IMG/VR virus record: IMGVR_UViG_3300031908_000001
Coordinates: 1-64,000 of that record
Strand: one strand, 5' to 3'
DNA from: a virus
Lineage: Duplodnaviria > Caudoviricetes
Length of the DNA: 64,000 nucleotides
Each line of letters starts with the position of its first letter. Positions within the stretch are counted from its first letter, which is position 1. This document shows, piece by piece, positions 2,230 through 64,000 of this stretch. The notes below the pieces were generated by a model. It was given only the letters and a program-made list of their open reading frames with translations. It had not been told where the DNA came from and did no database searches. A program made the position numbers and the translations under genes.

Positions 2230-2240
2230 CGTTAAGTTAA

Positions 2241-2582
2241 TTAATTTTTAGATTCTGAATACTCTTTCATTATCAAAAATAATTCTTGCTTTTCTTCAAT
2301 TGTTTTTGCCTTAAATATTAGCTCAAGACATCTTGAAAATACTTCAGAATTTTCATCATAAATCTCTTCTGCTTCTGAATCATTAAAATGTTTCTCTATT
2401 TCCTTTAATAGTCTGGTAGATGAGATTTGCATCTGATTATAAATCATCTTCATTTTTCCGGTAACTTTCCCCTTCAGGAACCATGACCACCCCTCCGATT
2501 GCTTGAACATATTTGCCCACATAAACATGGCAAATTGTGTTTGATTTAATGTTGTTTTTTCTACGATCTCTTCAGTAATCAT
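2241..2582 (-). CDS. hypothetical protein
   Basis: 113 aa ORF, translationally coupled within the minus-strand operon. Confidence 0.7.
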   Translation of the reverse strand: MITEEIVEKTTLNQTQFAMFMWANMFKQSEGWSWFLKGKVTGKMKMIYNQMQISSTRLLKEIEKHFNDSEAEEIYDENSEVFSRCLELIFKAKTIEEKQELFLIMKEYSESKN

Positions 2583-2818
2583 GCGATCTTTAATTTTTTA
2601 ATTAATCTTTTTCTCCTTAGTCTTAATTGTGCTATCATGTATCTGATGTACAAATCTTTTGTTGGCTCATCAAGGGTGGCAAAAACTGGATCATTTTCCA
2701 GCTCTTTCCTCTCTTCCCACATTTCAATCAAAGTATCATAATACTCAATATCCTGTTCGCCAATAATATTCTTTTTTATTTTAAATAACTTATCTTTTAA
2801 CGTTAACTGTTTTTCCAT
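2579..2818 (-). CDS. hypothetical protein
   Basis: 79 aa ORF with stop/start overlaps at both ends. Confidence 0.65.
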   Translation of the reverse strand: MEKQLTLKDKLFKIKKNIIGEQDIEYYDTLIEMWEERKELENDPVFATLDEPTKDLYIRYMIAQLRLRRKRLIKKLKIA

Positions 2819-3306
2819 TAAAATATTCTATTTACCTGATTGAACTTGTATAAATTAATATCATCACTATTCTTGAACTTTACATGAATCTCCTTGTTTT
2901 CAACATCACACTTTTTAATTTCCCCTATCTTAAACTCTCCATCTCCCAAGTACACTTTGCATTCGCATCCGGTTCTGTAATAAGATAAAATATCTCTTTT
3001 TTCAAGATCAATTCTATTTGCTTCACTTATGTACATAAAATTTGGAATACCTTTTGTAAGAACAGTTTGCCTATACAAATCATAGTACATTTTATGATCT
3101 GTAAAAATAGAAGGAAGGTCATTTCTAAGAGAAAGATTTGTTATTTTCCCCTTTTTAAATCCCATTATTTTTGCCCAATACTTCTTATCGGATTCATTAA
3201 CATAAATTTTATTACGCAGATAGGCAATAAAAAATTCTTGCTGCAGCACATTTAAGAAATCATAAATGCTTAAATTTCTTGTCTTATCATCTTTCCTCTC
3301 TAGCAT
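2818..3306 (-). CDS. hypothetical protein, possible C-terminal SH3-like fold
   Basis: 162 aa; C-terminal GCECKVYLGDGEFKIGEIKKCD beta-rich segment. Confidence 0.65.
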   Translation of the reverse strand: MLERKDDKTRNLSIYDFLNVLQQEFFIAYLRNKIYVNESDKKYWAKIMGFKKGKITNLSLRNDLPSIFTDHKMYYDLYRQTVLTKGIPNFMYISEANRIDLEKRDILSYYRTGCECKVYLGDGEFKIGEIKKCDVENKEIHVKFKNSDDINLYKFNQVNRIF

Positions 3307-3311
3307 ATGTT

Positions 3312-4334
3312 TTACTTTAAAATTATATTATTGATAGTATTTAATCCAAATTCAAGTGGTGATTGCAAATTATCCAAAACATCCATCAATTGATCTAGTG
3401 TGATATCTCCAGGATCACATTCAGTTAATTTTGCAACCAGAACATTAAAATATTTACTTAATTCAAATGCATACTTAAATGTATCCTTATAAGCATCTGG
3501 ATCAAACATGAGCACTATATTTTTTACTCCTGCGATCTGAAGCTTGTGTATTTGCTCATCAGAAATCTTCTTTCCAAAGCATGCTACACATTTTAACTCT
3601 GAGTCATGATACAAATTAAGTAACTTTGTTACGTTAAATTTATCAAATACACCTTCTACAGCTATTACCGTATTAGTTTTACCCCTTTGTATTTCTTCAT
3701 ATCCAAATAACATTTTGCCAAAATCAGATACAGAGTTAAGATATCTTGCATGCTTTATGCCCCTTATCTTTAAAGCTTGTACTTCCTCCTTTGTTTTTTT
3801 TGATCTAGCTATGTATCCAACACATTTTCCCCTCTCTTCTATTAAAAGAATAATTCTGTCTTTATATCTACTTAATATTTTTGATGAGCCAAATTTATAT
3901 TTTTCAAAATCCTCTGGAGTTATTCCCCTATTTTCAAGGTACTCATCTGAGTGTAATCTTTTGAATCCGGTTGGCAGTGCTTGTTCTTGTAAATATAAAC
4001 TATTTTCATCAAACCTTACTATAGTTTTTGTTAAGTTACTTAAATTTATTTTTAATAACTTTTCACTAAAGATTGAAGTGTCCCTAAATACCTTAACTAA
4101 GTCCAATCTATCTAAGTGTTTAAGAAGGGTATATAATCCTCCCTCCTCATTACACTTTAGGCACCTAAACTGATATGATTTATTATTCCCCCTCTTGTCT
4201 ATTTCATCAGTTTTTTTCTTAATAAAGAAGTGACCATCTCCCTTTTGGCAATAAGGACAATCTGCGGTTAATTGATTTTTGTTTGCTGGATGAACGTTTT
4301 CAAGAAGTTCATATAAATCTATATCTGCAACCAT
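3312..4334 (-). CDS. DNA primase (Zn finger + Toprim)
   Basis: CPYC...CLKC zinc finger, YLENRGI, RYLNS, Toprim AVEGVFD and MFDPD. Confidence 0.88.
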   Translation of the reverse strand: MVADIDLYELLENVHPANKNQLTADCPYCQKGDGHFFIKKKTDEIDKRGNNKSYQFRCLKCNEEGGLYTLLKHLDRLDLVKVFRDTSIFSEKLLKINLSNLTKTIVRFDENSLYLQEQALPTGFKRLHSDEYLENRGITPEDFEKYKFGSSKILSRYKDRIILLIEERGKCVGYIARSKKTKEEVQALKIRGIKHARYLNSVSDFGKMLFGYEEIQRGKTNTVIAVEGVFDKFNVTKLLNLYHDSELKCVACFGKKISDEQIHKLQIAGVKNIVLMFDPDAYKDTFKYAFELSKYFNVLVAKLTECDPGDITLDQLMDVLDNLQSPLEFGLNTINNIILK

Positions 4335-4352
4335 GAATTTTATTAATATATA

Positions 4353-6310: not shown

Positions 6311-6313
6311 TGT

Positions 6314-6967: not shown

Positions 6968-6977
6968 TTAGAATTAT

Positions 6978-6999
6978 CAAATGTAATAAAAACTTTTAT
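6978..6999 (-). promoter_or_regulatory. promoter (-7 TACATTTG) plus abutting operator-like box upstream of the DUF3440-GNAT/ibrA/ibrB genes
   Basis: CAAATGTA 6978-6985 followed directly by ATAAAAACTTTTAT 6986-6999. Confidence 0.6.
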
Positions 7000-8358: not shown

Positions 8359-8369
8359 TATTAAGTTAT

Positions 8370-8906
8370 TTAAAATTCAATTTTGTATTTGCATTCATAA
8401 ATTAAAGAAAGAGCCATTAATATAGTTTCATACTCTTCAGATTTAGAAGTGTCAATCAATGATATTTTAAAATCTGGTATGTGGATTACTGCAAGCTCAC
8501 AATTTTCCTCACACATCCTATATCCCATCAATTGAAGCTCATTTTCAAAATATACTTTGTCGGAGCTCTTGTAATCACATATGTATATCTTTCCCCTATA
8601 TTTAATCTTTACATCATATCTTCCCTGGAAGTAATCATTTTCTACTGATTGCTCTACTGAAATTATTTCTATGCCATTCTTAGATAAGAAATTTTCAAAT
8701 CTCTTTTGAATTTCTAAATCTGAAAATGGAGTCTTTTCTTTGCAATAATGCATTATTTCATTATGCAATTTATTTCCATCTGATTTACTTTTTGCTCTAT
8801 GATCATCTAATGATATTCCCTGAAGACCAATTTTATTGGCCCAATAAAGTAAAGCCGGTTTATCCAATAAAGCCAGCAATTTTGATATAGAAGGCTTTCT
8901 TTTCAT
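8370..8906 (-). CDS. PD-(D/E)XK nuclease / exonuclease
   Basis: [29 protein letters not shown] motifs. Confidence 0.75.
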
Positions 8907-9352
8907 ATTATAACTTGTTCAACATGTATGCCTACATTTCTTAAAAATTCTACCCCCGCTAAATCTCTATACTCTTCAAGATAGAAAACTCTCTTTATTC
9001 CACATTGAGCCATTAGCTTGGCACAATCAAAGCATGGAGATAAGGTAATATACATGTCCGCTCCATCTGAGCTCATTGTAGATTTTGCAATTTTGGATAA
9101 ACAATTTAATTCGGCATGCAACACTTCTTTCTTTGTCACATTATTTTCATCCTCGCAAACATTATCAGAGCCTGGATAGGTTCCATTGTATCCCATTGAA
9201 ATTACTGCATGATTTTTAACTAAGGCGGCTCCAACCTTCTTTCTCTCAGCTTTAGATAATTCTGAAAAACTAACCGCACACTTCATAAACGCGCGGTTAA
9301 TAATTTGCTCTTTTGTCATACCAAAAGTGGCTCCAGATTTAATACTCTCCAT
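8903..9352 (-). CDS. dCMP deaminase
   Basis: VGAALV, GYNG, HAELN and SPCFDC zinc-deaminase motifs; true start probably MTKEQ at about 9319. Confidence 0.92.
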   Translation of the reverse strand: MESIKSGATFGMTKEQIINRAFMKCAVSFSELSKAERKKVGAALVKNHAVISMGYNGTYPGSDNVCEDENNVTKKEVLHAELNCLSKIAKSTMSSDGADMYITLSPCFDCAKLMAQCGIKRVFYLEEYRDLAGVEFLRNVGIHVEQVII

Positions 9353-10564: not shown

Positions 10565-10576
10565 AAATTTTATTTT

Positions 10577-10589
10577 TTAAGTTACTTAA
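10577..10589. repeat. TTAAGTNACTTAA palindrome, representative intergenic copy
   Basis: Perfect copies also start at 4031, 21208, 38088, 38529, 42084, 53633, 59542 and 63604. Confidence 0.8.
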
Positions 10590-10595
10590 TGAAAA

Positions 10596-11975: not shown

Positions 11976-12533
11976 TTAACCTAATTTAAGCTTTTTACAA
12001 TCTTTTTTAAACTTGCAAAAAATACACAACTTAGATCTATGATTGTATAAAGTTGTCACCTCTATACAATTTACAAAACCACGCTCTGTATTATAAAATC
12101 TTAGCTTCTCAATATCCTGAAGAGGAATCTTATTAACAATTTTTACTCCATTCAATTTAGCAACTAAAATATCTTTATCTATATTAAATCTCTTAATAAA
12201 TTCCTGTAAAAAGTAATTCCAGCTCGACTGCTTATTGTCCCATCTATCCAGTGCCTTCTTGCCAACTACCCAATTTAACATCACCTTCCCTTCAAATCTA
12301 GTATCTAGCTCAGACCAATATTTAAACTGAAACGTATAGTAATCAATTAAAAAATTTGGACCTATGCTAAGTAAATGATAATTTTTATGAAGTAGTTTTA
12401 CAAAGTTACTAATTTGTTTTTCCTGATTATCTGATGGTCTAAATTTGTAATTCTTCCATCCAGTCATCTTTACAAAAAAGTACTCATATAAAATTCCTAT
12501 ATGCTCTTTAATTTCCCTCTCTTTTTCTTGCAT
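11976..12533 (-). CDS. hypothetical protein with C-terminal CxxC
   Basis: 185 aa, abuts the helicase; NC...CIFC...C. Confidence 0.65.
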   Translation of the reverse strand: MQEKEREIKEHIGILYEYFFVKMTGWKNYKFRPSDNQEKQISNFVKLLHKNYHLLSIGPNFLIDYYTFQFKYWSELDTRFEGKVMLNWVVGKKALDRWDNKQSSWNYFLQEFIKRFNIDKDILVAKLNGVKIVNKIPLQDIEKLRFYNTERGFVNCIEVTTLYNHRSKLCIFCKFKKDCKKLKLG

Positions 12534-12552
12534 TATTAGTGTATTTAGTTAA

Positions 12553-12610: not shown

Positions 12611-13465
12611 TTATTTGATCGATGTTGTTCTGTAAGTAAGATAGTTTTTTAATTCTCTTAATGTAACCTCTTGCTCAAGATACATTACGACATTATTAAA
12701 TGTTTCTATTCTCTCATTATCATTTCCGGCAATATCTTTCTGTACTGATTTCAAAAGCTGTACTATATGAGAAACCTTTCTTTCGTTCTTCTTATCTGAT
12801 ATTACACTAACGTGCTTTGATGTTATCCTGTCTTTTCCCTCTTTTTTTGCATTCTCCTTGGCCTCTTCTATGATTTCTTTTTGTCTGTCTTCATCTTTTG
12901 CAGATCTCATTATTTCTGAGGCAGTGGTTGCGCTCATTACATTTTCCAGGATTTGATTTTTTACAAATTTTGGAGCTTTGCTGACAAGTATCATGTTTGA
13001 TACATGAGCCTCTGTTTTACCGATCTTTCTTGCAATATCTTTTCTTGCCCATCCGTACGCCTCTAATCTGGAAAATAGATCTCCTTCTTCAAGTGGAGTA
13101 AGACGCTTTCCAGAATTTAAAACAAACATATCTACTAATCTTTGCTCATTAGTATAACCCCGCTCTTCTAAAATAAAAGGAACTTTCTTAATCAATGTTC
13201 CCTCACTTATTGCCTTCATCACTGCGGTATATCTTCTGAATCCATCTGTAAGTCGGAATTTTTCGCCATCCTTTTCTCTGAATCCCCTTAATGGTTGCTT
13301 AACACCGTTTTCTATAATTGAATTTTTTAGCTCATCAATATCACCATAATCTTGGCGAACGTTAAAACTTTCATCCGCAATTATTAGAGCAGGATCAAGC
13401 ATTAATAAATCTTTTCTTGTTATTGGTCTTACGTCTGTTGAATTAATAGCTGCGTTCTTTTCCAT
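12611..13465 (-). CDS. ParB/Spo0J-like partition protein (ParB-N + HTH)
   Basis: FNVRQDYGDIDELKNSIIENGVKQPL, LTDGFRRYTA, N..KRLTPLE and HTH RKDIARKIGKTEAHVSNMI. Confidence 0.85.
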   Translation of the reverse strand: MEKNAAINSTDVRPITRKDLLMLDPALIIADESFNVRQDYGDIDELKNSIIENGVKQPLRGFREKDGEKFRLTDGFRRYTAVMKAISEGTLIKKVPFILEERGYTNEQRLVDMFVLNSGKRLTPLEEGDLFSRLEAYGWARKDIARKIGKTEAHVSNMILVSKAPKFVKNQILENVMSATTASEIMRSAKDEDRQKEIIEEAKENAKKEGKDRITSKHVSVISDKKNERKVSHIVQLLKSVQKDIAGNDNERIETFNNVVMYLEQEVTLRELKNYLTYRTTSIK

Positions 13466-13563: not shown

Positions 13564-14367
13564 TTAATACTCAAAGTAAAATCTTACACCTGTTTCTATC
13601 AAATCGCTTGATAAAATAGTTTCATTATTTTCAATAATTCTTTTAATAAAAAGCCCCAAATATGTTCCAGATTTAAAATCTTCCACCTCTATACTATTAT
13701 CTATTAATCCCAAAAGAGGCACTGCTGGAGCAATATTAACAATGTTTATTTTTGTACTTATAATTCCACCTTCTTCTACACCCAACAATAATTTAGTAAT
13801 TTTTAATACTTGCCTCTCTGCATCTTCTAATAATACTTTCTCAATCTTATAATTTTCATTGGAGAATTTAGACACAATATAATCAAGATACTTGTCTACC
13901 TGAGAATTTAAAGTGAATGGTATTGAATATATAAGTAAAGATCCATCATAAATATTTACTGTTTGCCCCTTTGTTGGAGGTATATTGATGTCTATTATTG
14001 CTGATTCAAAATTAACATCGGCATCATAAAATTTGACAAAACGTGGCAAAATACCTTGGCCAACTGGCAATTCAAAATATGGGCCACATTCACTTGCGGT
14101 TGTGTGAGCTAATCCTATTTCTATTTTTGCCTGAGATTCTGGAAGGTATTCATAATATAATTTTAAATTTGCAATATCGGGTCCAGTATTCTTTAATGCT
14201 ATACATCGGCATTGCTTGGTTTTATCTCCAATATCTTTTAATGTGACATCAGTAAATAAGTTATTTAAATATTCATCCGGTATCTCAGAAGTACTTATGT
14301 GGCCACCTATTGAAATAGATGGATCTGTTTGTGCTCCTGACGAATTTGTATAATAAAATTTTATCAT
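13564..14367 (-). CDS. putative virion/baseplate protein
   Basis: End of the tail operon; beta-rich, PSISIGGHISTSEIP. Confidence 0.5.
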   Translation of the reverse strand: MIKFYYTNSSGAQTDPSISIGGHISTSEIPDEYLNNLFTDVTLKDIGDKTKQCRCIALKNTGPDIANLKLYYEYLPESQAKIEIGLAHTTASECGPYFELPVGQGILPRFVKFYDADVNFESAIIDINIPPTKGQTVNIYDGSLLIYSIPFTLNSQVDKYLDYIVSKFSNENYKIEKVLLEDAERQVLKITKLLLGVEEGGIISTKINIVNIAPAVPLLGLIDNSIEVEDFKSGTYLGLFIKRIIENNETILSSDLIETGVRFYFEY

Positions 14368-14801
14368 TATTTTTCTCCTGCTGCTATAACTAGTACGGCC
14401 TTTGATGTTAAAGTTGGAATTGTTACAGAATCTATCTCTATTGTGCCATCAAAATTTTCAACATTAATCATTTGATACTGTGACATTTTTCCAAGCGACA
14501 CTGTATTTACCGATAAGGAAAATTTAATATCATTTTTCTGAAAGTTTTCAGAATTGGAGTCATAGATCTGAATGTATAGATATGCCAATTTTGAAGCGTC
14601 AATATTTAATGCTTCAAACACATTTAAACTGAAGCTTGCTCCATATTTAATAGAAAAAGATCTATAATCTACTCTACCAAGTATAAATTTATTATATTCT
14701 GTAGAGGATGATCCTATTATATCATTAGCTACTAAATAATTGTTGGGAGACTGATAATCAGTCTCCTCAAATTTTATCTTAGATCCTACAGTTAGTTTCA
14801 T
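14367..14801 (-). CDS. hypothetical structural protein
   Basis: 144 aa, coupled to both neighbours. Confidence 0.55.
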   Translation of the reverse strand: MKLTVGSKIKFEETDYQSPNNYLVANDIIGSSSTEYNKFILGRVDYRSFSIKYGASFSLNVFEALNIDASKLAYLYIQIYDSNSENFQKNDIKFSLSVNTVSLGKMSQYQMINVENFDGTIEIDSVTIPTLTSKAVLVIAAGEK

Positions 14802-15190
14802 TATGGAAGTGGCTCAGATTTTCCTTCTCCGATCAACACCTTTCCAATATTGGCACTATATTCAGTCACCTTATCTCCGTCTCCAAAAGTGCCATCTGTT
14901 TCTGAAACAAGCACTATCGCTCTCATTATTCCTTCTGGGTAAGATGCGGTCTCTTCTCTTTCCAAAACAATATCTATTTGATTATCAATTGTTCCATTAA
15001 CAGTTAATGTACCAACACCCGTACTCGGATTTAGCGCATACCTTTTTGACTGCTCAACACCATTCACTTTAATGAATGCCTTTATATTTGGCACAGCCGT
15101 TAAATCAACTGCTACACCACTTTTGTCAAGAATTTGAATACTGGCAACGCTATCTTCGCCCTGTTTAAGAATAGTATATAGATTTGGCAT
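14801..15190 (-). CDS. BppU-like/Ig-like virion protein
   Basis: ILKQGEDSVASIQILDKSGVAVDLT...IVLEREETASYPEG pattern typical of BppU N-terminal-like domains. Confidence 0.5.
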   Translation of the reverse strand: MPNLYTILKQGEDSVASIQILDKSGVAVDLTAVPNIKAFIKVNGVEQSKRYALNPSTGVGTLTVNGTIDNQIDIVLEREETASYPEGIMRAIVLVSETDGTFGDGDKVTEYSANIGKVLIGEGKSEPLP

Positions 15191-15331
15191 TTTTATTAAA
15201 TTATTTTAAGTAAAAGTAGCGATTTATTTTATTATTTGAAAATAATTAAGTAATTTAAAATATTATAAAAACTTTTATCATTTAATGGTTACATTAATTA
15301 TTAAATAAGTATAAATAATAAAGATCGTAAA

Positions 15332-21199: not shown

Positions 21200-21243
21200 G
21201 CTATTTTTTAAGTAACTTAATAAAAATTTAAAAAATTGTTTGT

Positions 21244-32570: not shown

Positions 32571-33455
32571 TTATTCTAAGAAAGATTTAGTCGATTTTAA
32601 TTTATCTAATTTTTGTTTCAGTATAGTATATTGAGCTTGACCCAGAAGTGGATAAGGGCCGGCACTTTCTTTTGCCAACTGATCTAATAAATCACTTATA
32701 AGTTGAATAGTGGTATTGCCCAATAACATTGGCTCATTGCCGGAATTATGAATTATCTTTTTAGATGTTATATTAATCTCTCCGTCTTTTGCAATTATAC
32801 TATTTTGATATTCATCTTTGTATTTAAAACCCTCCCCCTTAACATAAGTCAAAGTTGTTATTTTATCATCTTTACTTATGTCGGAAATTTCAAAATTTAA
32901 TTTTTTAGTTGTTTTAATATTTAAAGAATCTGTACAATAAATTTCCCCACTTCCATTTATGAAAATTTTTAATTGACCCGTCTTGTTTTTATTATTTATG
33001 GTAATATTTAATAATCCGCCCTCTTCTTTGTCTGAATTAAGAGATATTAATAAATTACCTGACCCACCATCGCCGGTTATATCAACACTATTGCTTCCAA
33101 ATGTTTTATTTAACTTAAATTTCTTTTCATTTAAAAAAAATGTTTCATCATTTTTTGATAAAACTGCAACAATTACAACCTGATTATAGGGCTCTATATT
33201 AACCCAAATAACAGGACTACCTATGCCGCCACCAGATTCAGGAAATTCTATATTTTGAATTGCAGATTTATCAATAGGTACATCTTTAAAAAACTCATTA
33301 TTTTCAGTCAATAAACACACCCTATTCATTCTATAACATTGTTGAATGAACTGTTCTCTATCCACTTCCGTCGGAATAGTAATATAAGCTGACCCAGAAG
33401 TATATCTTGGAGATGATGGTGATTGTTTTCCAGCCGATGCTTTTTCTATTATCAT
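32571..33455 (-). CDS. baseplate central spike (gp5/gpV-like)
   Basis: OB-like N-terminus (FPESGGGIGSPVIW), beta-helix-like middle, EPMLLG. Confidence 0.6.
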   Translation of the reverse strand: MIIEKASAGKQSPSSPRYTSGSAYITIPTEVDREQFIQQCYRMNRVCLLTENNEFFKDVPIDKSAIQNIEFPESGGGIGSPVIWVNIEPYNQVVIVAVLSKNDETFFLNEKKFKLNKTFGSNSVDITGDGGSGNLLISLNSDKEEGGLLNITINNKNKTGQLKIFINGSGEIYCTDSLNIKTTKKLNFEISDISKDDKITTLTYVKGEGFKYKDEYQNSIIAKDGEINITSKKIIHNSGNEPMLLGNTTIQLISDLLDQLAKESAGPYPLLGQAQYTILKQKLDKLKSTKSFLE

Positions 33456-33478
33456 TAAGTAAATATAGTCATTTTTAA
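33456..33478 (-). promoter_or_regulatory. putative late promoter, copy 1 (TTAAAAATGACTATATTTACTTA)
   Basis: 23 bp identical to 38542-38564; contains a TATATTTA -7-like box. Confidence 0.55.
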
Positions 33479-35778: not shown

Positions 35779-37770
35779 TTATTTTGTTTTTTTAGGTACA
35801 TAAGTTGGATTTACAGATGGTGCGCTTGAGGAATTAAACCAGCTTCCAATTCTAGCCAATCCTGCCTGTAATGTTTGTAAATCACCCTCTATTGACTTAT
35901 TAAATTTTTCAATTGGACCATCTACAAAGAAGCCCTTAAAATCTATTTTATTAAAAGTTTCTTTTATAGCATCTCCCGTAGCTTTCGCAATATCTTTCCC
36001 CATGCTGGTAGCGCCTGAAAGAAGGCCATCATCCTCTATTTTATTAATATATTTCTCACCCTTGTTTACTAAGCCTTCTCCAAGTGGAGCAACTCTATTT
36101 GTCATCTTAGCCGTCAATCTATCAATACTTCCTGTCATTCTAGTTCCGCCTTCAACAAATTGAGAGTCTTGCGTTAATCCATATTTTTTAAATAGTTCAT
36201 TTCTTGATGCTATGTCTGCAAAAGGGTCTTTGCCCTCATTCATTCCTTTTTGATATGAATCGAACAATGCCCCCGATTGATTGGCCGACAATCCAAACAT
36301 TTCTTTTAACATTATTTTTTTATTGCCGGAACTGCCTCCTCTATTGGTTAAATCTTTCATAACCTGAGATAGCGTTCCTTCACCAAAAATTCCCTCTTCT
36401 TGCTTCTTCTGTAGGTCGAAAAGATCGGCATCAGGGTTAAGTTTTCTTAAAGCAGAATAAACCATTGCTTGCTTAAAATCGTTTCCAGGATTAACTATTG
36501 CATTATTCATTGTGCTAATTCTTTCACCTGCGGTTACTGGATTTGCGAAAGTTCCACCTAGTCTCTGGAAGGAGGCTATGACGGATGCATTTGAATTGGT
36601 ATTTACGCTTTCAAGCCTCTTAGACTGATCCTGCATTATGGTAGTCTGAATATGCATAAATTCTTCTAATGAGGCCATATCTTTCCCAGATGCACCAAAT
36701 GCCCCCTCTTGTTTTAAGTATTTAATTAAATTTTGTATATCGCCGGCCGTATCTCTTCTGTTGCTATCTAATCTTTGTAATTTATCAAATCCAAGCAAAG
36801 ACCCATCACTTACTCCATACATTTGCTTAGTCCCCTGCAATCTTAATGCAGCACCCTGAACACTATCTGAAAATCTACCCATTCCGAGGGCATACGCTTC
36901 TGTAGAATATCCACGATTCTTTGCCATCTGAGCGGAAAAATTCATAAATTCTGCTTGATCGACTCCCATTCCTGCTGCCGGTTTTCCAATATCAATGTTT
37001 GGATTACCAGATATTCTTCCTAATGTAAGTCTACTTTCCTGAAGTCTTGATCCCTCCTGAATTAATTTATTTGCTATAGTAGATATGCCCTGACCAATCA
37101 TTGGTATTATAGCAAATGCTGCTGCTGCCATTGCCAATTCATTGCCTTGTGTCGCTATCTGAGCACCATTGTTGAATGCACCAGATGCACTGCCTCCACT
37201 TTTTCTTTTTTCATTTGATTCTGATTCCTTTTTCTCTGCCTTATCTCCTCTCTTATTTGAATTTTTAAATTCTTCTTCTGGATCTATTTCCTTCTTTTTG
37301 CCGCCGAATATTCTTGAAAAAAATGATTGCGTCTTATTTTCTTGGATGTTCTCATCTTTTATCTCCTCTTTTGCAGAAGTTTTAATAGCTTCTACAATCT
37401 CTTTAAGATATTTAACCTGAAGATTGTCTTCTGAAGATTCTTGATTTATATTAGAAAGATCAGATTTATATTTTTTAGCAATCTCATCTCTTTCTATTTT
37501 TGTCTTTGCTGCACTAGATTGAGATTGATAAGCTTTAGATGCTTCAATTTTTCTACCTTCTGTTTCTAGTCTATTTCTTTTATCTATTAAGGCAATCTGT
37601 TCTGACAGGTATTTATTCTGCTCCTTGGCGGAACTAGAATATTTGATTGCATCTGCAATTAAATCTTTGGAAAGATCTTTAGCAGATCTCCTTAATTTAT
37701 CCATTAAGGAAACTACACCATTATCCTGTGCTTCAAATTGTACTCTTTTTGTAGATGAACCTGAACCCAT
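35779..37770 (-). CDS. tape measure protein
   Basis: 663 aa, helical, A/G/Q-rich; follows the tube gene and two chaperone-like genes. Confidence 0.7.
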   Translation of the reverse strand: MGSGSSTKRVQFEAQDNGVVSLMDKLRRSAKDLSKDLIADAIKYSSSAKEQNKYLSEQIALIDKRNRLETEGRKIEASKAYQSQSSAAKTKIERDEIAKKYKSDLSNINQESSEDNLQVKYLKEIVEAIKTSAKEEIKDENIQENKTQSFFSRIFGGKKKEIDPEEEFKNSNKRGDKAEKKESESNEKRKSGGSASGAFNNGAQIATQGNELAMAAAAFAIIPMIGQGISTIANKLIQEGSRLQESRLTLGRISGNPNIDIGKPAAGMGVDQAEFMNFSAQMAKNRGYSTEAYALGMGRFSDSVQGAALRLQGTKQMYGVSDGSLLGFDKLQRLDSNRRDTAGDIQNLIKYLKQEGAFGASGKDMASLEEFMHIQTTIMQDQSKRLESVNTNSNASVIASFQRLGGTFANPVTAGERISTMNNAIVNPGNDFKQAMVYSALRKLNPDADLFDLQKKQEEGIFGEGTLSQVMKDLTNRGGSSGNKKIMLKEMFGLSANQSGALFDSYQKGMNEGKDPFADIASRNELFKKYGLTQDSQFVEGGTRMTGSIDRLTAKMTNRVAPLGEGLVNKGEKYINKIEDDGLLSGATSMGKDIAKATGDAIKETFNKIDFKGFFVDGPIEKFNKSIEGDLQTLQAGLARIGSWFNSSSAPSVNPTYVPKKTK

Positions 37771-37783
37771 TTATTAAGTTGTT

Positions 37784-38140
37784 TTAATCAAATTTTATGT
37801 TATCATCAAAAGCATTCAGATCAATATTATCAAACCGCTCCATTTTTTCTTCTTCCTTAATTTCACTCATCTTTAGCCATTCGCCCGTTTTTTCATATTC
37901 TTTTTTACCACTTTCAAAATCTTCTATATCCTGAAAATATTTTTTAAACATGTTCTCCTCCTCAATCTCAATTTTCATATCAATCAAACACATTTCTCTA
38001 TGTTCACTTGAACCAAAAGAAATATTTCTCTTAAGTCTCCAAATTCTATCAACTGGATATTTATTATTCCAGGAAATGATAAAAGATTTAAGTGACTTAA
38101 GAGAATTATCTTTGTAATTTTTTAATTTTAATTGAGGCAT
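37784..38140 (-). CDS. putative tail assembly chaperone 2
   Basis: Position between the tube and tape measure genes. Confidence 0.5.
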   Translation of the reverse strand: MPQLKLKNYKDNSLKSLKSFIISWNNKYPVDRIWRLKRNISFGSSEHREMCLIDMKIEIEEENMFKKYFQDIEDFESGKKEYEKTGEWLKMSEIKEEEKMERFDNIDLNAFDDNIKFD

Positions 38141-38517
38141 TAGTTGCTCTCCTTAATCTCCTCCTCTTCCTCTCTTGAATTTATAACTTTGTCCCATTCT
38201 TCAAACCAAGGAAGAAATTCTTCCTTATAAGCCTTAAGAAGCGGCTTTGCTTCTATCGGAGACAATTCTAAAATGGAATTATATCCCTGAAGATTATCCT
38301 TTAATTTGGGTATAAGAGTAATAAAATATGCAAGCATATCTATTAAATCCAATGCATATACTGAGTTATGATTATTCATTAAAGATAATGACCCATACAT
38401 ATTATTTGCCAGGGCCGCTTTCTTTGTTTCAATATCTAACAATTCTCCTATGTTCGGATATTTAACCTCATAAGACTGTTCTCCTATGTTAACTTTTACT
38501 GTTTTGCTTAATGCCAT
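38140..38517 (-). CDS. putative tail assembly chaperone 1
   Basis: Position after the tube gene; YEVKYPNIGELLDIE. Confidence 0.55.
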   Translation of the reverse strand: MALSKTVKVNIGEQSYEVKYPNIGELLDIETKKAALANNMYGSLSLMNNHNSVYALDLIDMLAYFITLIPKLKDNLQGYNSILELSPIEAKPLLKAYKEEFLPWFEEWDKVINSREEEEEIKESN

Positions 38518-38541
38518 TAATTTAAATTTTAAGTTACTTAA

Positions 38542-38564
38542 TAAGTAAATATAGTCATTTTTAA
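38542..38564 (-). promoter_or_regulatory. putative late promoter, copy 2
   Basis: 23 bp identical to 33456-33478; lies just after the tube-gene terminator. Confidence 0.55.
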
Positions 38565-38590
38565 AATGATTTAATAACTTATGTATAAAG

Positions 38591-38616
38591 AAAAAGGGCC
38601 TCAGAAAGACCCTTTT
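38591..38616 (-). terminator. intrinsic terminator after the tail tube gene
   Basis: Minus strand AAAAGGGTCT-TTCTG-AGGCCCTTTTT. Confidence 0.65.
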
Positions 38617-38657
38617 TAAAATTTATCAACTTAAACCTAAAATTTATGCAAAATTTC

Positions 38658-39137
38658 TTATTTTGGAAAGATTACTGGTTCTGTAAAAACAAAACTTTGA
38701 TTGTGAGTAGCTACTTGCCCCTCTGAAATGCTCAAACTTTCATTGTTAGAGTATACACCCTTTATTATAGCTATCGGCTTTAATTTTGGCCTTGGTATAC
38801 CTCTTTCATCTATAACATCTGTTATCTTTCGGAAGATGTCCAACTGTATACCCTCTTCTTGTAAGGTAAGATAGTCTTCATATTCATTTGCTGTCTGAAC
38901 ATCTCTTCTGACTGAGCCTTTTGCTCTGGCCGTTTCCCAATCAATAAAATAATATGTGCATGACACAGATCCTGAGTGAGCAACAACTGGCTTTTCTTGA
39001 GAAAAAATTGTTCCAAGCCCCCTTACATCTGCTCTTTGTAGATCTTCTGTAACGGAGATGTCTCTCATTTTACCTATCACTTGACCCTTTACTCGAACCA
39101 GGGCGATTGCACCTGTGACCACTTCATTTTTTGACAT
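38658..39137 (-). CDS. tail tube protein
   Basis: 159 aa directly after the sheath; VVTGAIALVRVKGQVIG...VRGLG, SPO1/Twort-like tube pattern. Confidence 0.8.
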   Translation of the reverse strand: MSKNEVVTGAIALVRVKGQVIGKMRDISVTEDLQRADVRGLGTIFSQEKPVVAHSGSVSCTYYFIDWETARAKGSVRRDVQTANEYEDYLTLQEEGIQLDIFRKITDVIDERGIPRPKLKPIAIIKGVYSNNESLSISEGQVATHNQSFVFTEPVIFPK

Positions 39138-41775: not shown

Positions 41776-42579
41776 TTATAAGTTTAAGTATTGTGCCATC
41801 CAAATATTTTGAGCTATTTCAACCTCTCTATCTACGTCAAATTTTGATAAAGCTGAATCTGATATATTTTTTGCAGTTAATCCTGGATATATCCAGCTAT
41901 TTGGATCAGAATTTAAACTAACTCTCCTAAAACTCTTATAAGTATTCTGTCCAGTTACAGAATCTTGAAATTTACTTATGCCCTGATAAATAGAATGCTT
42001 ATTTTCATAAGCTTCAAATTTTTTATCGGCTAATGCTATTTCCGGCCTAACTTTTGGTCTTGACAAGAAGTCTGGAACGTTTTTTAAGTCACTTAAACTT
42101 ATACCGGAAGATCTCTTTCCTTCTCCATTTTGAATATTTGCCGGCTTATCTTTTACAATATCGTATATTTCTACAGGCATTTTTGCTGAAAACATTTCGC
42201 TTTCGCCTACTGCTCCAGGAGTAGCAAATCTAAGTGGAATTGTTATATAAGCTTTTCCATCCTTATCAAATTTTACCTTTGAACTGGCAAGAAATCCGGC
42301 CTTCATATCAAAAGCAGAACAGCCCGATTCAATCATATTTGGAAATTTATTTACCAACATTACTGCACCGGAGAATTTTCCTTCATCTACTACAACCAAA
42401 GATTTTTGATAAATAGATCTAGTTGAATTAAGCTTTCTTCCAGCTTCAGCCATCCACCTTTCATAAAAATTTGAAGTAAGTCTTCTTACGACAAATGTTT
42501 TTAATTTATTTACATCTGCTTGTGTTATGTTTGGATACAATGCAGAAATCTTAGAGCTATCTATTAATATATTTATCAT
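41776..42579 (-). CDS. neck/tail completion protein
   Basis: PNMIESGCSAFDMK, YITIPLR, YKSFRRVSLNSDPNSWIYPG, SPO1/Twort-like neck pattern. Confidence 0.6.
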   Translation of the reverse strand: MINILIDSSKISALYPNITQADVNKLKTFVVRRLTSNFYERWMAEAGRKLNSTRSIYQKSLVVVDEGKFSGAVMLVNKFPNMIESGCSAFDMKAGFLASSKVKFDKDGKAYITIPLRFATPGAVGESEMFSAKMPVEIYDIVKDKPANIQNGEGKRSSGISLSDLKNVPDFLSRPKVRPEIALADKKFEAYENKHSIYQGISKFQDSVTGQNTYKSFRRVSLNSDPNSWIYPGLTAKNISDSALSKFDVDREVEIAQNIWMAQYLNL

Positions 42580-44616: not shown

Positions 44617-44646
44617 AAAATAGGTAAGATTTCTCCTACCTATTTT
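44617..44646 (-). terminator. intrinsic terminator after the major capsid gene
   Basis: AAAATAGGTA...TACCTATTTT inverted repeat. Confidence 0.65.
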
Positions 44647-44669
44647 AGTTACTTAATGTTTACTAGTAA

Positions 44670-51096: not shown

Positions 51097-51101
51097 TTTA
51101 G

Positions 51102-51392
51102 TTACTTAATAATATTGTCATTTTCTCCTAAATTCACTTTATTTGAGGTAGTCATCTGAGCACCAACAATTCCAAGAGCTCCACCAATTACTCCTATTCC
51201 AGAGCACCATTGACCAATTTGAATTAATATTTCTGGCAGAAATCCAGGAGCATTTGTTTCTGCCGTATAAATTCCCAATCCCAAAACTATTGAAATTGCC
51301 ACAACTTTCTTTAAAGCTTTTTGAATAGCTTTAGCTATTTTGGGGGTTTCGCTTTTCCATCTTTGAATTACTAGCTGTATTACTTTTTTCAT
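51102..51392 (-). CDS. holin-like membrane protein
   Basis: RWKSETPK basic N-terminus and two TM segments. Confidence 0.5.
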   Translation of the reverse strand: MKKVIQLVIQRWKSETPKIAKAIQKALKKVVAISIVLGLGIYTAETNAPGFLPEILIQIGQWCSGIGVIGGALGIVGAQMTTSNKVNLGENDNIIK

Positions 51393-59550: not shown

Positions 59551-60084
59551 TTAAGATTTTTTGAATTGTTCTGCTATCATTTTTATTTGCTGGATGAGGA
59601 TATTGTACATATTGACATCATTATCTTTTATAGTTTTGAGGTCTGGATTGTGTAGAACTCCATTTACATAAAATTCTTGGATTCCACTCCCCAAATTTGT
59701 AATTGATAAACTGGCAAGTTTAGTTTCTATTCCAGGCTTAGACATTATTCTTTTGATTACCTCTTCTTCGTTATAGCCAAGATTATAATTTCGGATATCC
59801 AGAATATGGACCCATTGAAGTTTTCCATCTTTATAAACTTGTACTTGATTATGGGGAATTTCATCTATTGCCGGTACTTGATATTTTTCTACCAATTCAA
59901 GCTCATAATCTGCAAATTCACATGAATCACTGCTTCCCAATGAATCATTAAATCGAACAAGAAAAGGAAATTCTCTATATTGAAAGAATTCACCTATTAC
60001 TCCTGTTCTACCTATATCGTCCTTATCCCCGTGCTTATTCGAGATGACTTTTACTTCGTCTCCTGCTTTAAATTTTCTTTTCAT
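59551..60084 (-). CDS. hypothetical protein with N-terminal SH3/KOW-like domain
   Basis: FKAGDEVKVI...GRTGVI...YELELV. Confidence 0.6.
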   Translation of the reverse strand: MKRKFKAGDEVKVISNKHGDKDDIGRTGVIGEFFQYREFPFLVRFNDSLGSSDSCEFADYELELVEKYQVPAIDEIPHNQVQVYKDGKLQWVHILDIRNYNLGYNEEEVIKRIMSKPGIETKLASLSITNLGSGIQEFYVNGVLHNPDLKTIKDNDVNMYNILIQQIKMIAEQFKKS

Positions 60085-60085
60085 T

Positions 60086-60289: not shown

Positions 60290-60300
60290 AGCTGTATTAT

Positions 60301-60747: not shown

Positions 60748-60756
60748 AATTTTGGT

Positions 60757-61308: not shown

Positions 61309-61310
61309 GA

Positions 61311-61801: not shown

Positions 61802-61877
61802 ATTAAATTCTGTTTAATTATTGCGCCTATGATGATCATAAGCAACATTAGTGTTCCTATTATAAATTCTTTCTTGG

Positions 61878-62105
61878 TCATGGCTTCTGATTTGCTAATA
61901 CAATTATTTCTGATTTCAAATGTTGTATTTTATTAATTAGACCTTCAATTATCTGGTCTCTCTCCTCGGCATACTTTCTAATTGACTTTACAGCATCAAC
62001 CACTGTTATTACTCCTAAAGGATTTGTCTCTACTATATAAGATTCCTTGTTTAGGACCTCCGCAATGATGTCATGAGGAGTTTTATTTAATTTAAGCTCT
62101 GACAT
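61878..62105 (-). CDS. hypothetical protein
   Basis: 75 aa. Confidence 0.5.
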   Translation of the reverse strand: MSELKLNKTPHDIIAEVLNKESYIVETNPLGVITVVDAVKSIRKYAEERDQIIEGLINKIQHLKSEIIVLANQKP

Positions 62106-62106
62106 A

Positions 62107-62283
62107 TCATTTTAAGTTATTAATGATCTCAGGTGCCTTAATATCATTCTGTCCGGCTATTGCTACACTCATTCTCCTAAGAACATCTTCTGTTTTATCT
62201 TCCAGTTCGCTTCTTTTATATCTATCACAATTCTTTGTGATAAAGTCTATTAGCTGCTCCCTGTATCTTTCTTCAGGTGTCAT
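62107..62283 (-). CDS. small hypothetical protein (58 aa, not in the ORF track)
   Basis: Hand translation MTPEERYREQLIDFITKNCDRY...; promoter box directly upstream. Confidence 0.55.
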   Translation of the reverse strand: MTPEERYREQLIDFITKNCDRYKRSELEDKTEDVLRRMSVAIAGQNDIKAPEIINNLK

Positions 62284-62297
62284 ATGATTTATGTTTA

Positions 62298-62337
62298 CAA
62301 ATGTAATACAAAGTTTTTGAATAATAAAAACTTTTAT
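62298..62337 (-). promoter_or_regulatory. promoter (-7 TACATTTG) with two operator-like boxes
   Basis: CAAATGTA 62298-62305, then ATACAAAGTTTTTG and ATAAAAACTTTTAT. Confidence 0.6.
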
Positions 62338-62340
62338 AAG

Positions 62341-62517
62341 TTATTTTTTTGGCAATGCTATAATCATTCCAACAAATATTGGAAAAAATATTGGTGCTGT
62401 AACGATTGACAAAATCCATCTTGCAAAATTAGATTTATCACCATTAATATGTGAGCCCAATAAATTACCAAACATTACCAAACATGAAAATGCGATATAG
62501 GTCCACAATGCTATCAT
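62341..62517 (-). CDS. small membrane protein (58 aa, not in the ORF track)
   Basis: Hand translation MIALWTYIAFSCLVMFG...WILSIVTAPIFFPIFVGMII. Confidence 0.5.
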   Translation of the reverse strand: MIALWTYIAFSCLVMFGNLLGSHINGDKSNFARWILSIVTAPIFFPIFVGMIIALPKK

Positions 62518-62855
62518 AATTGTTTTTGTTTAAATTGTTCCGCGTACTCTTCCATTACTTCCAGCATAAATTGTTTTAAATCTGGAAGGTGTGATAAATC
62601 CAAATGAGTCTTGTTGTAACTATCCAGGATTTCTTCAGCCGTCTTTATTCGCGGCTCCAAATCTTCTTCCTGGACATCGTAAAATTCCCCCTCTCCATTG
62701 TCAGACACCAATGATACTGAATACCATTTCTTACCAACCATTAATCCATCTCTATCAGCTATTATTACAGCATCACCCTTATTTAATTCAGACCCCGATG
62801 GGAAATCTTTATTGATGATTGCCTTGTCTTCTAATCTAAATTTATATGCACTCAT
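62514..62855 (-). CDS. hypothetical protein (SH3-like N-terminus)
   Basis: YKFRLEDKAII...VQEEDLEP; KTAEEIL...MEEYAEQF. Confidence 0.55.
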   Translation of the reverse strand: MSAYKFRLEDKAIINKDFPSGSELNKGDAVIIADRDGLMVGKKWYSVSLVSDNGEGEFYDVQEEDLEPRIKTAEEILDSYNKTHLDLSHLPDLKQFMLEVMEEYAEQFKQKQL

Positions 62856-62859
62856 AATA

Positions 62860-63285
62860 TTATTTTTTTACAAAATAAACTACGTCCAAAATATTTGTTG
62901 TTACAAAAACTTTATGATGATGAATCTCAATTGTTCCACCATTTACTCTATAAAGAGAGTAGCCATTTAAATGAACCGGATCTCCTATTATAACATAATG
63001 CCTATAATATGTGCCGGCAAGAAATATGTTGCCAGTCTCTTCATTGATACTTATTGAATTATCTTGCTTTCTTTCAAATACATTGAATCTTGAGATAGAA
63101 TAATTTAATGAATCAATTATATAATCTGGATCTTCTTTACTGATTTTTGTAAAATCCCATTTCTGATAAATAAGAATTTTTTCTGATTCTATCTTTGTTG
63201 TTTGGGCCACTGCTACATTAAGCATTCCCGTTATTAGTATTGCAAACAACAGAGATACAATAATTGTTTTTAAGTTACTTTTCAT
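62860..63285 (-). CDS. putative secreted protein
   Basis: Signal peptide ending AVA-QTT. Confidence 0.55.
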   Translation of the reverse strand: MKSNLKTIIVSLLFAILITGMLNVAVAQTTKIESEKILIYQKWDFTKISKEDPDYIIDSLNYSISRFNVFERKQDNSISINEETGNIFLAGTYYRHYVIIGDPVHLNGYSLYRVNGGTIEIHHHKVFVTTNILDVVYFVKK

Positions 63286-63608
63286 ATACTTTTAAATTTT
63301 ATTAACAAACTACAAATACTTTTACTCCCCATCCAAGGGGCCAAAGCCAGCTTCTTTCTACTTGAATATAAGACTGTCTTTCACTTGTTCTGGTTGATTG
63401 ATTATTTTCTTTATTCAAAATTAAAAATTGTTTCTCCTGAATCTATCTTTGGAGGTAAAAGCTGAGTGTGAGTCTTTGATATGATCTCTTTCCCTGGGTT
63501 GCTTTACTCCTCTGTTTTGCTCATTTTCCTTGATCTGATAATTGAGCTCATGATTTGTGCTGAATTTTAACATGATCTTTTCGGTTTAAGTTGATAAATT
63601 TCATTAAG

Positions 63609-63872
63609 TTACTTAACGGTTGAAAGCTTATTAAATACAGTAGTCCACTCATATCCGCATTTTGTTATCACTCTGCAAAATGGACCGTGTTGCTCTAACA
63701 AAGTGACCTCTATTAACTCTTCATTCTCTTCAAACTCTATAAGATAAATTTGTCCTATAAGGAGAATATCAGTTTTCTTATATCCATGTTTTTTATGAAA
63801 ATAAGATTTAATTGACCACTGAATGGCTACTCCTGCTGCTATTATATAAAATAATTCTATAGGTACAAACAT
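63609..63872 (-). CDS. hypothetical membrane-anchored protein
   Basis: N-terminal TM segment. Confidence 0.5.
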   Translation of the reverse strand: MFVPIELFYIIAAGVAIQWSIKSYFHKKHGYKKTDILLIGQIYLIEFEENEELIEVTLLEQHGPFCRVITKCGYEWTTVFNKLSTVK

Positions 63873-64000
63873 AATCTTTATCGTTTAATTAAAGGTAAAT
63901 AAATTATTTTAATTATCAAAACTTTTATTATATTTTATTTAATTATTTAATAAAAAAGTAGGATTTAAATTATTTAATAAGCCTGAGATCGTTAAGTTAC

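Follow-up and report, generated by a model that had tools for sequence, protein, structure and literature searches.

Orphan ParB genes of unassigned role occur in many phages and, to our knowledge, the only documented case in which a ParB clamp slides along DNA to silence distant promoters is a plasmid system, KorB/KorA of RK2. The inverted-repeat (IR) sites of N15 SopB are dispersed. KorB OB sites lie from 4 bp to >1 kb from promoters (PMC11790492), and four natural IR sites are described for N15 SopB (PMC7205306). In cluster A mycobacteriophages (L5, Bxb1, TipsytheTRex), stoperators of 13 bp occur >20 times per genome, at promoters and in short intergenic spaces (PMC9283540). ParB-dependent thymine dioxygenases use a ParB that has no DNA-binding domain (PMC13229309), and thus provide no model for the helix-turn-helix (HTH)-bearing ParB considered here.

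The 108,492-bp genome of the Bacteroidota phage studied here carries one 13-base palindrome in about 30 copies. As in RK2, the sites are scattered replicon-wide, at promoter-proximal, distal and far positions, and the replicon itself encodes a ParB-family protein that combines an HTH with a CTP-binding N-domain.

Enrichment and form of the palindrome

TTAAGT-N-ACTTAA is the top palindrome of the genome and its most over-represented 9-10-mer, with 16 perfect copies and 35 with at most one mismatch. The window, a 64-kb stretch (positions 1 to 64,000 of the record), holds 9 and 20 of these, respectively (Table 1). The nine perfect and eight one-mismatch copies of the original prediction were all recovered, the latter comprising six in Table 1 and those at 29649 and 51899, and we add three intragenic one-mismatch copies at 26975, 29609 and 53503. 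A copy at 63992, rightly noticed but described as truncated, is complete and perfect in the genome.

The excess withstands the Markov-background check that had been proposed, as orders 0-5 predict 0.02-0.08 perfect copies genome-wide against the 16 observed. For the window, dinucleotide shuffles gave an expectation of 0.02, and 0 of 100 reached nine. Junction DNA alone contains 10 perfect copies, compared with 0.003-0.01 simulated under a junction-trained model, and 22 copies with at most one mismatch, compared with 0.2-0.4. Within genes, six perfect copies stand against 0.11 expected from synonymous-codon shuffling, a count reached by 0 of 300 shuffles. Half-sites alone showed no enrichment once motif copies were subtracted. 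Avoidance of restriction sites was considered and rejected, as GTNAC shows no depletion (172 observed, 146 expected).

Among 406 Bacteroidota genomes the motif occurs 0-4 times each, no more commonly than a backward-read control; thus, no host regulon or repeat uses it in the sampled genomes, and judged against this set the motif is specific to the phage. A literature search for the exact 13-bp motif found no match. An IMG/VR scan for TTAAGTAACTTAAA returned matches that were nearly all single and at chance level, and two of the records it concerned, L012 and L014, have no relationship to the present phage.

As a unit, the 13 bp form a strict 6-N-6 palindrome with a free centre base, and the flanks of all copies have zero information content. 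Three of the perfect window copies lie within coding sequences, as predicted (4031, 38088 and 42084). In six intragenic copies of the genome, 12 of 12 outer bases are kept against codon preference and the centre base fits the reading frame; the L-K-S-L-K frame at 38088..38100 needs the observed centre C. At the primase site, the peptide LSNLT is kept at the same position in a 65%-identity relative, and not in a 69%-identity relative. A hairpin, terminator or REP-like element was rejected on a minimum free energy of 0 kcal/mol and the uninformative flanks, and none of nine position-5 changes is compensated at position 9. Uninformative flanks, the lack of a hairpin and the upkeep of outer bases within genes thus suggest that a symmetric dimer reads the site as double-stranded DNA. 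The original proposal of a dimeric-protein site spread across all modules is consistent with every feature computed from sequence, namely the 6-N-6 form, free centre, flanks, lack of a hairpin and codon choice.

Junctions hold 22 of the 35 copies, and many overlap the stop codon of the upstream gene. TAA stops in both palindrome arms account for part of this junction preference, which explains how a stop-codon-rich, AT-rich palindrome ends up between genes and aids the reading of similar motifs in other phages. Read on the sense strand, junction copies depart from the motif nine times at position 5 and not once at position 9 (p=0.004), and 17 of 23 have A at the centre. This strand bias is not predicted by a plain symmetric loading site. 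The motif was also rejected as a Bacteroidota host-type promoter (-33 TTTG / -7 TAnnTTTG), the TAnnTTTG boxes being separate and variably placed upstream or downstream of it. Short promoter cassettes recur at junctions.

Table 1. The ParB-family gene and copies of the palindrome in the window, with their settings
Feature	Position	Strand	Setting	Detail
Orphan ParB-family gene, candidate reader	12611..13465	minus		HTH_ParB domain and N-domain with G-x-R-R-x-x-A box
Perfect copy	4031..4043		In Toprim primase gene 3312-4334 (minus)	In-frame L-S-N-L
Perfect copy	10577..10589		Junction	6 nt past DnaB-like helicase stop, 12 nt before next ATG
Perfect copy	21208..21220		Past terminator hairpin; 8 nt before TATATTTG box preceding muramidase gene	Sense centre T
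Perfect copy	38088..38100		In 118-aa ORF 37784-38140	Second open frame, L-K-S-L-K
Perfect copy	38529..38541		3-4 nt past TATATTTAC -7-type box	11 nt before ATG of 38140-38517
Perfect copy	42084..42096		In 267-aa ORF 41776-42579	L-S-D-L, centre G
Perfect copy	53633..53645		4 nt past stop of 53650-53862	About 20 nt upstream of portal-gene operator and promoter
Perfect copy	59542..59554		TAA (motif bases 2-4) is stop of 59551-60084	ATG 2 nt downstream
Perfect copy	63604..63616		Central TAA (bases 6-8) is stop of 63609-63872	
Perfect copy	63992..64000 in window		Cut at window end	Complete at genome 63992-64004
One-mismatch copy	2232..2244		Junction; 2 nt before DnaE-like polymerase ATG	Sense TTAATTAACTTAA
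One-mismatch copy	8361..8373		Junction; 2 nt before RecA ATG	Sense TTAAATAACTTAA; TAA is upstream gene's stop
One-mismatch copy	15246..15258		Divergent region between 15190 and 15332	6 nt past ATAAAAGTTTTTAT operator
One-mismatch copy	44644..44656		Between major capsid gene stop and terminator-like hairpin	13 nt from stop
One-mismatch copy	51097..51109		Junction	Overlaps upstream stop codon, abuts next ATG
One-mismatch copy	57641..57653		Final codons of 57637-57909	9 nt before next ATG

An orphan ParB-family protein as candidate reader

The phage ParB matches Pfam HTH_ParB above the cutoff (4e-8) and ParB_N at 22.9 bits, under the 26.3-bit cutoff, and the G-x-R-R-x-x-A residues of the CTP box (G75, R77, R78 and A81) are invariant in the family alignment. 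Its best PDB sequence matches are Noc (7ng0, E 1e-9, the best), Spo0J and KorB. The AlphaFold2 model has a pLDDT of 82, with the first 11 residues disordered, and a fold matching KorB, ParB and Noc; Foldseek ranks the KorB-KorA-DNA complex 8qa9 first (E 2e-10). Among about 90 scanned phage proteins, ParB is the sole recognisable sequence-specific DNA binder. No DNA-binding family was detected in the small proteins adjoining the site cluster at 89.5-89.8 kb. The dCMP deaminase (8903-9352), common to G407 and G442, was set aside as ordinary nucleotide metabolism, and no result of the analysis supports TerS or the IbrAB-like system, the latter also put forward originally, as reader.

The suggestion of ParB as reader gained comparative support from unrelated phages and proviruses whose ParB relatives are accompanied by scattered same-core palindromes, described below. 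Its 'parS-like' wording, in the partition sense, is unsupported because ParA was not found adjoining parB: the flanking ORFs (11976-12533, 13564-14367, 14367-14801 and 14801-15190) gave no Pfam match. No motif copy adjoins parB in the present phage, the nearest being about 2 kb off.

With confidence only slightly above even, we favour a model in which the palindrome is the double-stranded DNA site of a phage-encoded symmetric dimer, most likely the orphan ParB/KorB/Noc-type protein at 12611-13465, acting as a sliding clamp. By analogy with KorB on OB and Noc on NBS, we infer that the ParB dimer would recognise TTAAGT-N-ACTTAA (duplex TTAAGTAACTTAA) through its HTH domain and would then close into a CTP-bound clamp. 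With about 20-35 points of entry, one every 3-7 kb, sliding or spreading of the clamp would leave the whole phage chromosome coated. The probable outcome would be genome-wide transcription control, by silencing or road-blocking, in which the binder of a second palindrome, ATAAAAGTTTTTAT, located on host-type promoters, may be a partner. Coating could alternatively serve whole-genome organisation.

Of the proteins of the present phage, only ParB recurs in all five ParB-bearing records that were analysed in full, and in three of the five a scattered (A/T)AA-S-T-N-A-S-TT(A/T) is the top palindrome. In G407 this is AAAGT-N-ACTTT, with 10 copies at no more than one mismatch over 56 kb. The 63.5 kb of G442 contain G-AAA[GC]T-N-A[GC]TTT-C 14 times; 9 of these copies are intragenic and one lies about 20 nt upstream of parB. 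In G448, AAACT-N-AGTTT occurs in 8 perfect copies, mostly at intervals of 5-7 kb, and in 11 near copies. AAASTNASTTT reached three or more copies in 8 of the 42 ParB-positive records and in none of the 37 ParB-negative controls (Fisher p=0.0045), a test that is partly circular because the pattern was refined after viewing the ParB-positive set. The motif-bearing kin do not have the same HTH helices as the present ParB; thus, shared contact residues do not explain the shared core.

The nearest fetchable ParB relatives (G412, G413, G414 and G417; 42-48% identity), which have the recognition helix most similar to that of the present ParB and of which three of four are fragments, contain no motif copy and no enriched palindrome. 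Likewise, neither G001 nor Chryseobacterium phage MA9V-3, both distant structural relatives, has a copy or an analogous motif. Close relatives of the phage are absent from IMG/VR, and one metagenome scan returned only a 39% relative. Nearest homologues, known as proteins only, have identities of 70% for the capsid, 68% and 60% for ParB, 73% for DnaE, and 69% and 65% for the primase. RecA places the host at phylum level only, and a search with the T9SS-like protein as a guide to the host gave no match.

These records may conceivably belong to an undescribed class of viral genome-wide ParB systems, a doubtful extension that we offer tentatively. Its members would be orphan HTH-ParB CTP clamps, encoded by phages and proviruses, that coat the viral chromosome from 10-35 scattered (A/T)AA-S-T-N-A-S-TT(A/T) palindromes, one per 3-8 kb; in the present phage the ATAAAAGTTTTTAT binder would be a KorA-like clamp lock, giving long-range, replicon-wide transcription switching. 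If the palindromes are ParB loading sites, they would define the target of one orphan ParB subfamily, and the sliding-clamp silencing mechanism would operate on whole viral genomes across several host phyla.

Alternative explanations for the sites

The junction preference, with its many copies over upstream stop codons, could instead reflect another, unrecognised dimeric phage regulator that reads the sites as operators or 'stoperator'-type roadblocks stopping RNA polymerase at gene ends along a genome that runs in one direction, with ParB binding elsewhere, for example at ATAAAAGTTTTTAT. Two copies span the transcription start, as they begin 2-4 nt past a -7-type box; that at 38529..38541, sited between box and ATG, covers the likely start and leader. 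About 100 or more of the 183 ORFs are without a family assignment or outside the scan, leaving room for such a protein, and the orientation bias relative to transcription recalls the stoperators of L5 (PMC9283540). However, L5-type sites are asymmetric and monomer-bound, whereas the present one is perfectly palindromic, and neither a repressor nor an integrase turned up in the scanned proteins. A separate regulator would also leave unexplained why the same core palindrome occurs in unrelated phages sharing only ParB, and sits poorly with G442 and G407, in which the majority of sites are intragenic. We regard this explanation as unlikely. A host protein as reader seems to us extremely improbable, given the rarity of the motif in the 406 Bacteroidota genomes.

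Of the junction copies, 14 of 23 end 0-13 nt 5' of the next start codon, TAACTTAA, the core on the sense strand, is conserved better than the other half of the motif, and G448 copies also abut ATG codons, as might be expected of a translation (re-)initiation enhancer or intercistronic processing site acting in mRNA, the host phylum not being reliant on Shine-Dalgarno pairing. The motif also resembles the T7 gene-10 'epsilon' UUAACUUUA. Yet genome compaction, with a median gene junction of only 3 nt, accounts for the proximity to start codons, and several copies have no start codon within 80-145 nt or are flanked by a stop codon and a terminator. A single-stranded signal has no need of a palindrome, and the six perfect palindromes deep within genes, the mostly intragenic sites of G442 and G407, and the centre base of G448 (A and T equally often, though its genes run one way) all argue against an mRNA signal, which we consider very unlikely. 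There is similarly slight probability that the copies are recombination footprints or joints, left by a short mobile sequence or at module-exchange boundaries, and not a working protein site. The intragenic copies at genome positions 107433 and 88449 have about 27 nt in common, which encode SLSNL[MI]KY[YF] within otherwise unrelated proteins, and the recurrent promoter cassettes would fit such exchange. But flank conservation is absent across all copies, the DnaE homologue alignment shows that the internal copy is no insertion, and a 73%-identical DnaE relative keeps SLSNL while adjacent residues change. Recombination would also leave the association with ParB unexplained.

Comparison with described ParB and stoperator systems

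In N15, too, a ParB-family protein has its sites at several separate inverted repeats on a phage genome, those of the present phage being putative. N15 differs in having four sites, the ParA partner SopA and a plasmid-prophage lifestyle, whereas the present phage has 16-35 sites and ParA was not found. With L5-type stoperators the phage sites share a 13-bp length, placement in short gaps and an orientation tied to transcription. In contrast, stoperators have no symmetry, and the temperate-phage repressor that binds them is a two-domain monomer; the phage site is a perfect palindrome, and such a repressor was not recognised among the proteins scanned.

Noc, which acts through NBS sites on the Bacillus chromosome, is a non-partition ParB paralogue on many scattered palindromes and the best PDB match of the phage ParB by sequence. 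It differs in that it controls the division site by tethering the chromosome to the membrane, the present replicon being viral, and its membrane-targeting N-terminal helix is not seen in the phage ParB alignment.

RK2 differs in being a plasmid rather than a phage replicon and in its site sequence, and the phage sites are strand-biased; a ParA/IncC partner and a recognisable KorA were not found in the phage. Both sites are of odd length and 6-N-6 form, the OB core being TTTAGC-G-GCTAAA (oligo in PMC11790492). In structure, the modelled phage ParB matches KorB best (8qa9), and in both replicons a second palindrome lies on promoters, OA in RK2 and ATAAAAGTTTTTAT in the phage. KorB/OB or Noc/NBS is thus a better analogy for this phage than partition parS.

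Enrichment and specificity of the palindrome

The repeated palindrome TTAAGT-N-ACTTAA is real. All nine perfect copies originally predicted in the window were confirmed to the base (TTAAGTNACTTAA; dinucleotide-preserving shuffles expect 0.02), and tolerating one mismatch raises the count to 20, where 0.55 would be expected. These include the eight predicted one-mismatch copies and three more, and the copy at 63992, thought to be truncated, is complete and perfect in the full genome. In the whole record (108,492 bp, 32.6% G+C, with overlapping ends; the window is its first 64 kb), 16 perfect copies are found, or 35 when one mismatch is allowed, where Markov models of order 0–5, the background proposed for checking enrichment, expect 0.02–0.08 perfect copies. 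The motif is the genome's top-ranking palindrome, and no other 9-mer or 10-mer is in greater excess on the coding strand (TTAAGTAACT, for instance, is found 14 times where 0.2 are expected).

About 173 of the 183 open reading frames lie on the minus strand. The window encodes an SU10-type major capsid protein, portal, prohead protease, DnaB-like helicase, DnaE-type polymerase (spanning the record ends), Toprim primase, RecA, muramidase, terminase, DEDD exonuclease and dCMP deaminase, and the remainder encodes ThyX, UvrD-type and SNF2-type helicases and RNase H. As the phage RecA is nearest to Bacteroidota RecA across many families (57–65% identity) and the closest cultured capsid relatives belong to Bacteroides and Chryseobacterium phages (34–37%), we place the host in the Bacteroidota, at phylum level. 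The dCMP deaminase, ThyX, a PAPS-reductase/DUF3440 protein and its small ParB/Srx-like neighbour together suggest that pyrimidine metabolism is altered or the DNA modified; phage thymine dioxygenases have ParB-like activators (PMC13229309).

A host signal was rejected, as 406 Bacteroidota genomes (1.6–7.2 Mb) carry 0–4 copies each, not above a backward-read control. Motif density in the phage is roughly a thousand-fold higher, and thus the reader should be phage-encoded. Three perfect copies also occur in an unrelated 9.8-kb viral contig from IMG/VR (L012), set within a series of CTTAAG-type iterons and a 40-nt inverted repeat bracketing a 3.2-kb segment, possibly an origin or a segment capable of inversion.

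Copies at gene junctions and inside genes

Information is confined to the 13 bp, with none contributed by the flanks, and half-sites by themselves are not enriched once motif copies are subtracted. An RNA or DNA hairpin is ruled out because folding the lone 13-mer gains no energy (0 kcal/mol), with weak folding in only two copies via chance extensions, and because position 5 is altered (G to A or T) in nine junction copies while position 9 never compensates.

As predicted, most copies lie at gene junctions: 22 of 35 genome-wide overlap at least partly with a stop codon or non-coding sequence, a class that accounts for 12.6% of positions. With the background model fitted to junction sequence (27% G+C), 0.003–0.01 perfect copies and 0.2–0.4 with at most one mismatch are expected there, against 10 and 22 observed. 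Many copies supply the upstream gene's stop codon, through motif bases 2–4 or, when the centre is A, bases 6–8, and 14 of 23 junction copies end 0–13 nt ahead of the next start codon. The median junction is 3 nt and TAA terminates 126 of 173 genes; such contact with stop and start codons is what one would expect when a TAA-rich 13-mer has to fit into so compact a genome. Junction copies are also strand-biased: nine of them differ at position 5 and none at position 9 (p = 0.004), and 17 of 23 have A as the coding-strand centre base. Variation in intragenic one-mismatch copies falls at position 9, the wobble base.

Within genes, six perfect copies lie deep in coding sequence against 0.11 expected under synonymous-codon shuffling (0 of 300 shuffles reach six). 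They use rare codons (AAC, 16% of Asn codons; AGT, 19% of Ser codons). Four translate as L-S-[N/D]-L, and two, with centres T and C, occupy the other open frame (nTT AAG TNA CTT AAn), which tolerates those centres alone. The twelve outer bases thus stay constant while the centre adapts to the frame, a pattern that marks the motif as a symmetric site in double-stranded DNA and not as an mRNA signal.

Alignment of DnaE shows that its internal copy is not an insertion, and a relative at 73% identity retains S-L-S-N-L, followed by a codon necessarily starting with A, although adjacent residues differ. Primase relatives keep LSNLT at 65% identity but have LNNEI at 69%, and thus individual sites turn over. 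That DnaE relative, the nearest found (P0120), has 1502 aa, about 300 more than others, and aligns in two separate segments, as would a protein interrupted by an intein or insert. Separately, about 27 nt around the motif copy are common to the DnaE-type polymerase gene and that of a 285-aa protein unrelated to it.

Coordinates of the palindrome, its counterparts and associated features
Feature	Sequence	Position	Description
Additional one-mismatch motif copies	Window	26975, 29609, 53503	
Motif upstream of promoter boxes	Genome	53633, 63992, 85652	20–70 nt upstream of TAnnTTTG
Motif over start site	Genome	38529, 71907	2–4 nt downstream of -7 box
Motif in operon-internal junctions	Window	e.g. 2232, 8361, 10577, 51097, 59542	No promoter
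Motif between stop codon and terminator	Genome	44644, 94069	
Intragenic copies sharing ~27 nt, flanks included	Genome, beyond window	107433, 88449	Peptide SLSNL[MI]KY[YF]
ParB reading frame	Window	12611-13465	
dCMP deaminase, ThyX, PAPS-reductase/DUF3440, ParB/Srx-like set	Window; genome	8903-9352, 5018-6310, 4353-5021; 68834-69889	
ATAAAA-NN-TTTTAT	Window	6986-6999, 15265-15278, 53598-53611, 53868-53881, 58241-58271, 62324-62337	Also elsewhere
AAAGATCGTAA	Window; genome	53556, 47886, 30446, 13468, 11995; 97887, 79927	Window positions on minus strand
AAAAATGACTATATTTACTTA	Window	33455-33475, 38542-38565	
Perfect 13-mer copies	L012	2195-2246, 5380-5530	Three copies
[G/T]AAAGT-N-ACTTT[C/A]	G407 (56 kb, 56% G+C)	6.8 to 55.3 kb	10 copies (at most 1 mismatch); control 0
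G-AAA[G/C]T-N-A[G/C]TTT-C	G442 (63.5-kb provirus, 55% G+C)	End to end	14 copies, 9 intragenic
AAACT-N-AGTTT	G448 (L266-L268; 48.8 kb, 45% G+C)	4957-46067 (perfect copies)	8 perfect, 11 near copies
TACAAAT-N-ATTTGTA	G418 (L260; 69 kb)	32661-39109	Different N1 palindrome; cluster of four or five, 10-16 kb from parB

The ParB/KorB-like protein as candidate reader

The element is very probably a phage DNA site bound by a protein, and its best-supported candidate reader, held with moderate confidence, is the ParB/KorB-like protein. Its reading frame matches HTH_ParB (Pfam, E = 4e-8), with weak matches to ParB_N and KorB, both under Pfam cutoffs. Noc, Spo0J/ParB and KorB are its best solved relatives by sequence, and the family alignment has invariant G-x-R-R-x-x-A and N-x-G-K-x-L-T-x-x-E boxes. 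An AlphaFold2 model (pLDDT 82) is nearest to the KorB-KorA-DNA complex 8qa9 (E = 2e-10, TM 0.70 on target), followed by ParB and Noc. No ParA was found beside parB, and no motif copy adjoins parB in the phage.

Among 50 IMG/VR loci with ParB relatives at 30–48% identity, drawn from the homologue alignment, the exact 13-bp motif is absent. A palindrome search across these loci recovered GAAAGT-N-ACTTTC, whose inner nine bases are identical to the phage site. A degenerate form of it is the top palindrome of one record (G407, p = 7e-14), and in a provirus (G442) one copy of another such form lies about 20 nt upstream of parB. The perfect copies in G448 are mostly spaced 5–7 kb apart, with one 1.6-kb gap involving a near copy at 18550; half of its copies are at junctions, several abut ATG codons, and A and T are equally frequent at the centre. 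In the G+C-rich relatives sites are mostly intragenic, which argues for a DNA-level site and suggests that part of the phage's junction bias comes from the stop codons in its TTAAGT and ACTTAA arms.

Three or more copies of AAASTNASTTT are present in 8 of 42 ParB-positive records and in 0 of 37 viral records without a ParB relative (Fisher p = 0.0045; 0.008 with related records collapsed), a partly circular test as the pattern was refined on the ParB-positive set. The a-priori core WAAGTNACTTW had already picked out G407, G442 and G418. ParB is the only one of the phage's 183 proteins to recur, as a homologue, in every one of the five records analysed in full.

The prediction of a site for a dimeric protein, with ParB among its possible readers, thus stands in part. 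The symmetric unit and the outer bases fixed in genes agree with dimer binding, but the junction strand bias does not fit a plain symmetric loading site. Similarly, ParB is the sole recognisable sequence-specific DNA binder among about 90 phage proteins scanned and like palindromes occur in ParB-bearing records, but the four closest relatives compared (42–48% identity, most similar recognition helix; three fragments and one record 75% complete) have neither such a motif nor any enriched palindrome. Recognition helices of the motif-bearing relatives differ from that of the phage ParB.

Promoters and known systems

Host-type TAnnTTTG boxes mostly abut a second palindrome, ATAAAAGTTTTTAT (ATAAAA-NN-TTTTAT, about 35 genome copies with at most one mismatch, usually abutting the -7 box), which is a promoter operator distributed unlike the 13-bp motif. 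No fixed position of the 13-bp motif relative to these boxes was found. A third repeat, AAAGATCGTAA, is coding-strand-specific (11 sense copies against 2 antisense); at junctions it mostly sits 1–22 nt ahead of a start codon, with portal, protease/scaffold and parB among the key genes so preceded, and a signalling role in the leader or in translation is possible. Upstream of two late genes stands a 21-nt promoter-like cassette, AAAAATGACTATATTTACTTA; one copy abuts ATG and the other is set apart from it by the 13-bp palindrome plus a further 11 bases.

By analogy, the mode of action is most likely that of KorB or Noc. A CTP clamp would load site-specifically at many entry points and then slide or spread across the viral genome, probably resulting in transcriptional control, with the ATAAAAGTTTTTAT binder at promoters a possible partner. 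The spread of motif positions around promoters agrees with that of KorB operators on plasmid RK2, which lie from 4–10 bp to >1 kb from promoters (PMC11790492). In its strand bias at junctions the motif is reminiscent of mycobacteriophage stoperators, which are orientation-dependent (PMC9283540); however, those are asymmetric monomer sites, whereas the phage motif is a palindrome. The literature searched describes no virulent-type phage genome with scattered ParB sites.
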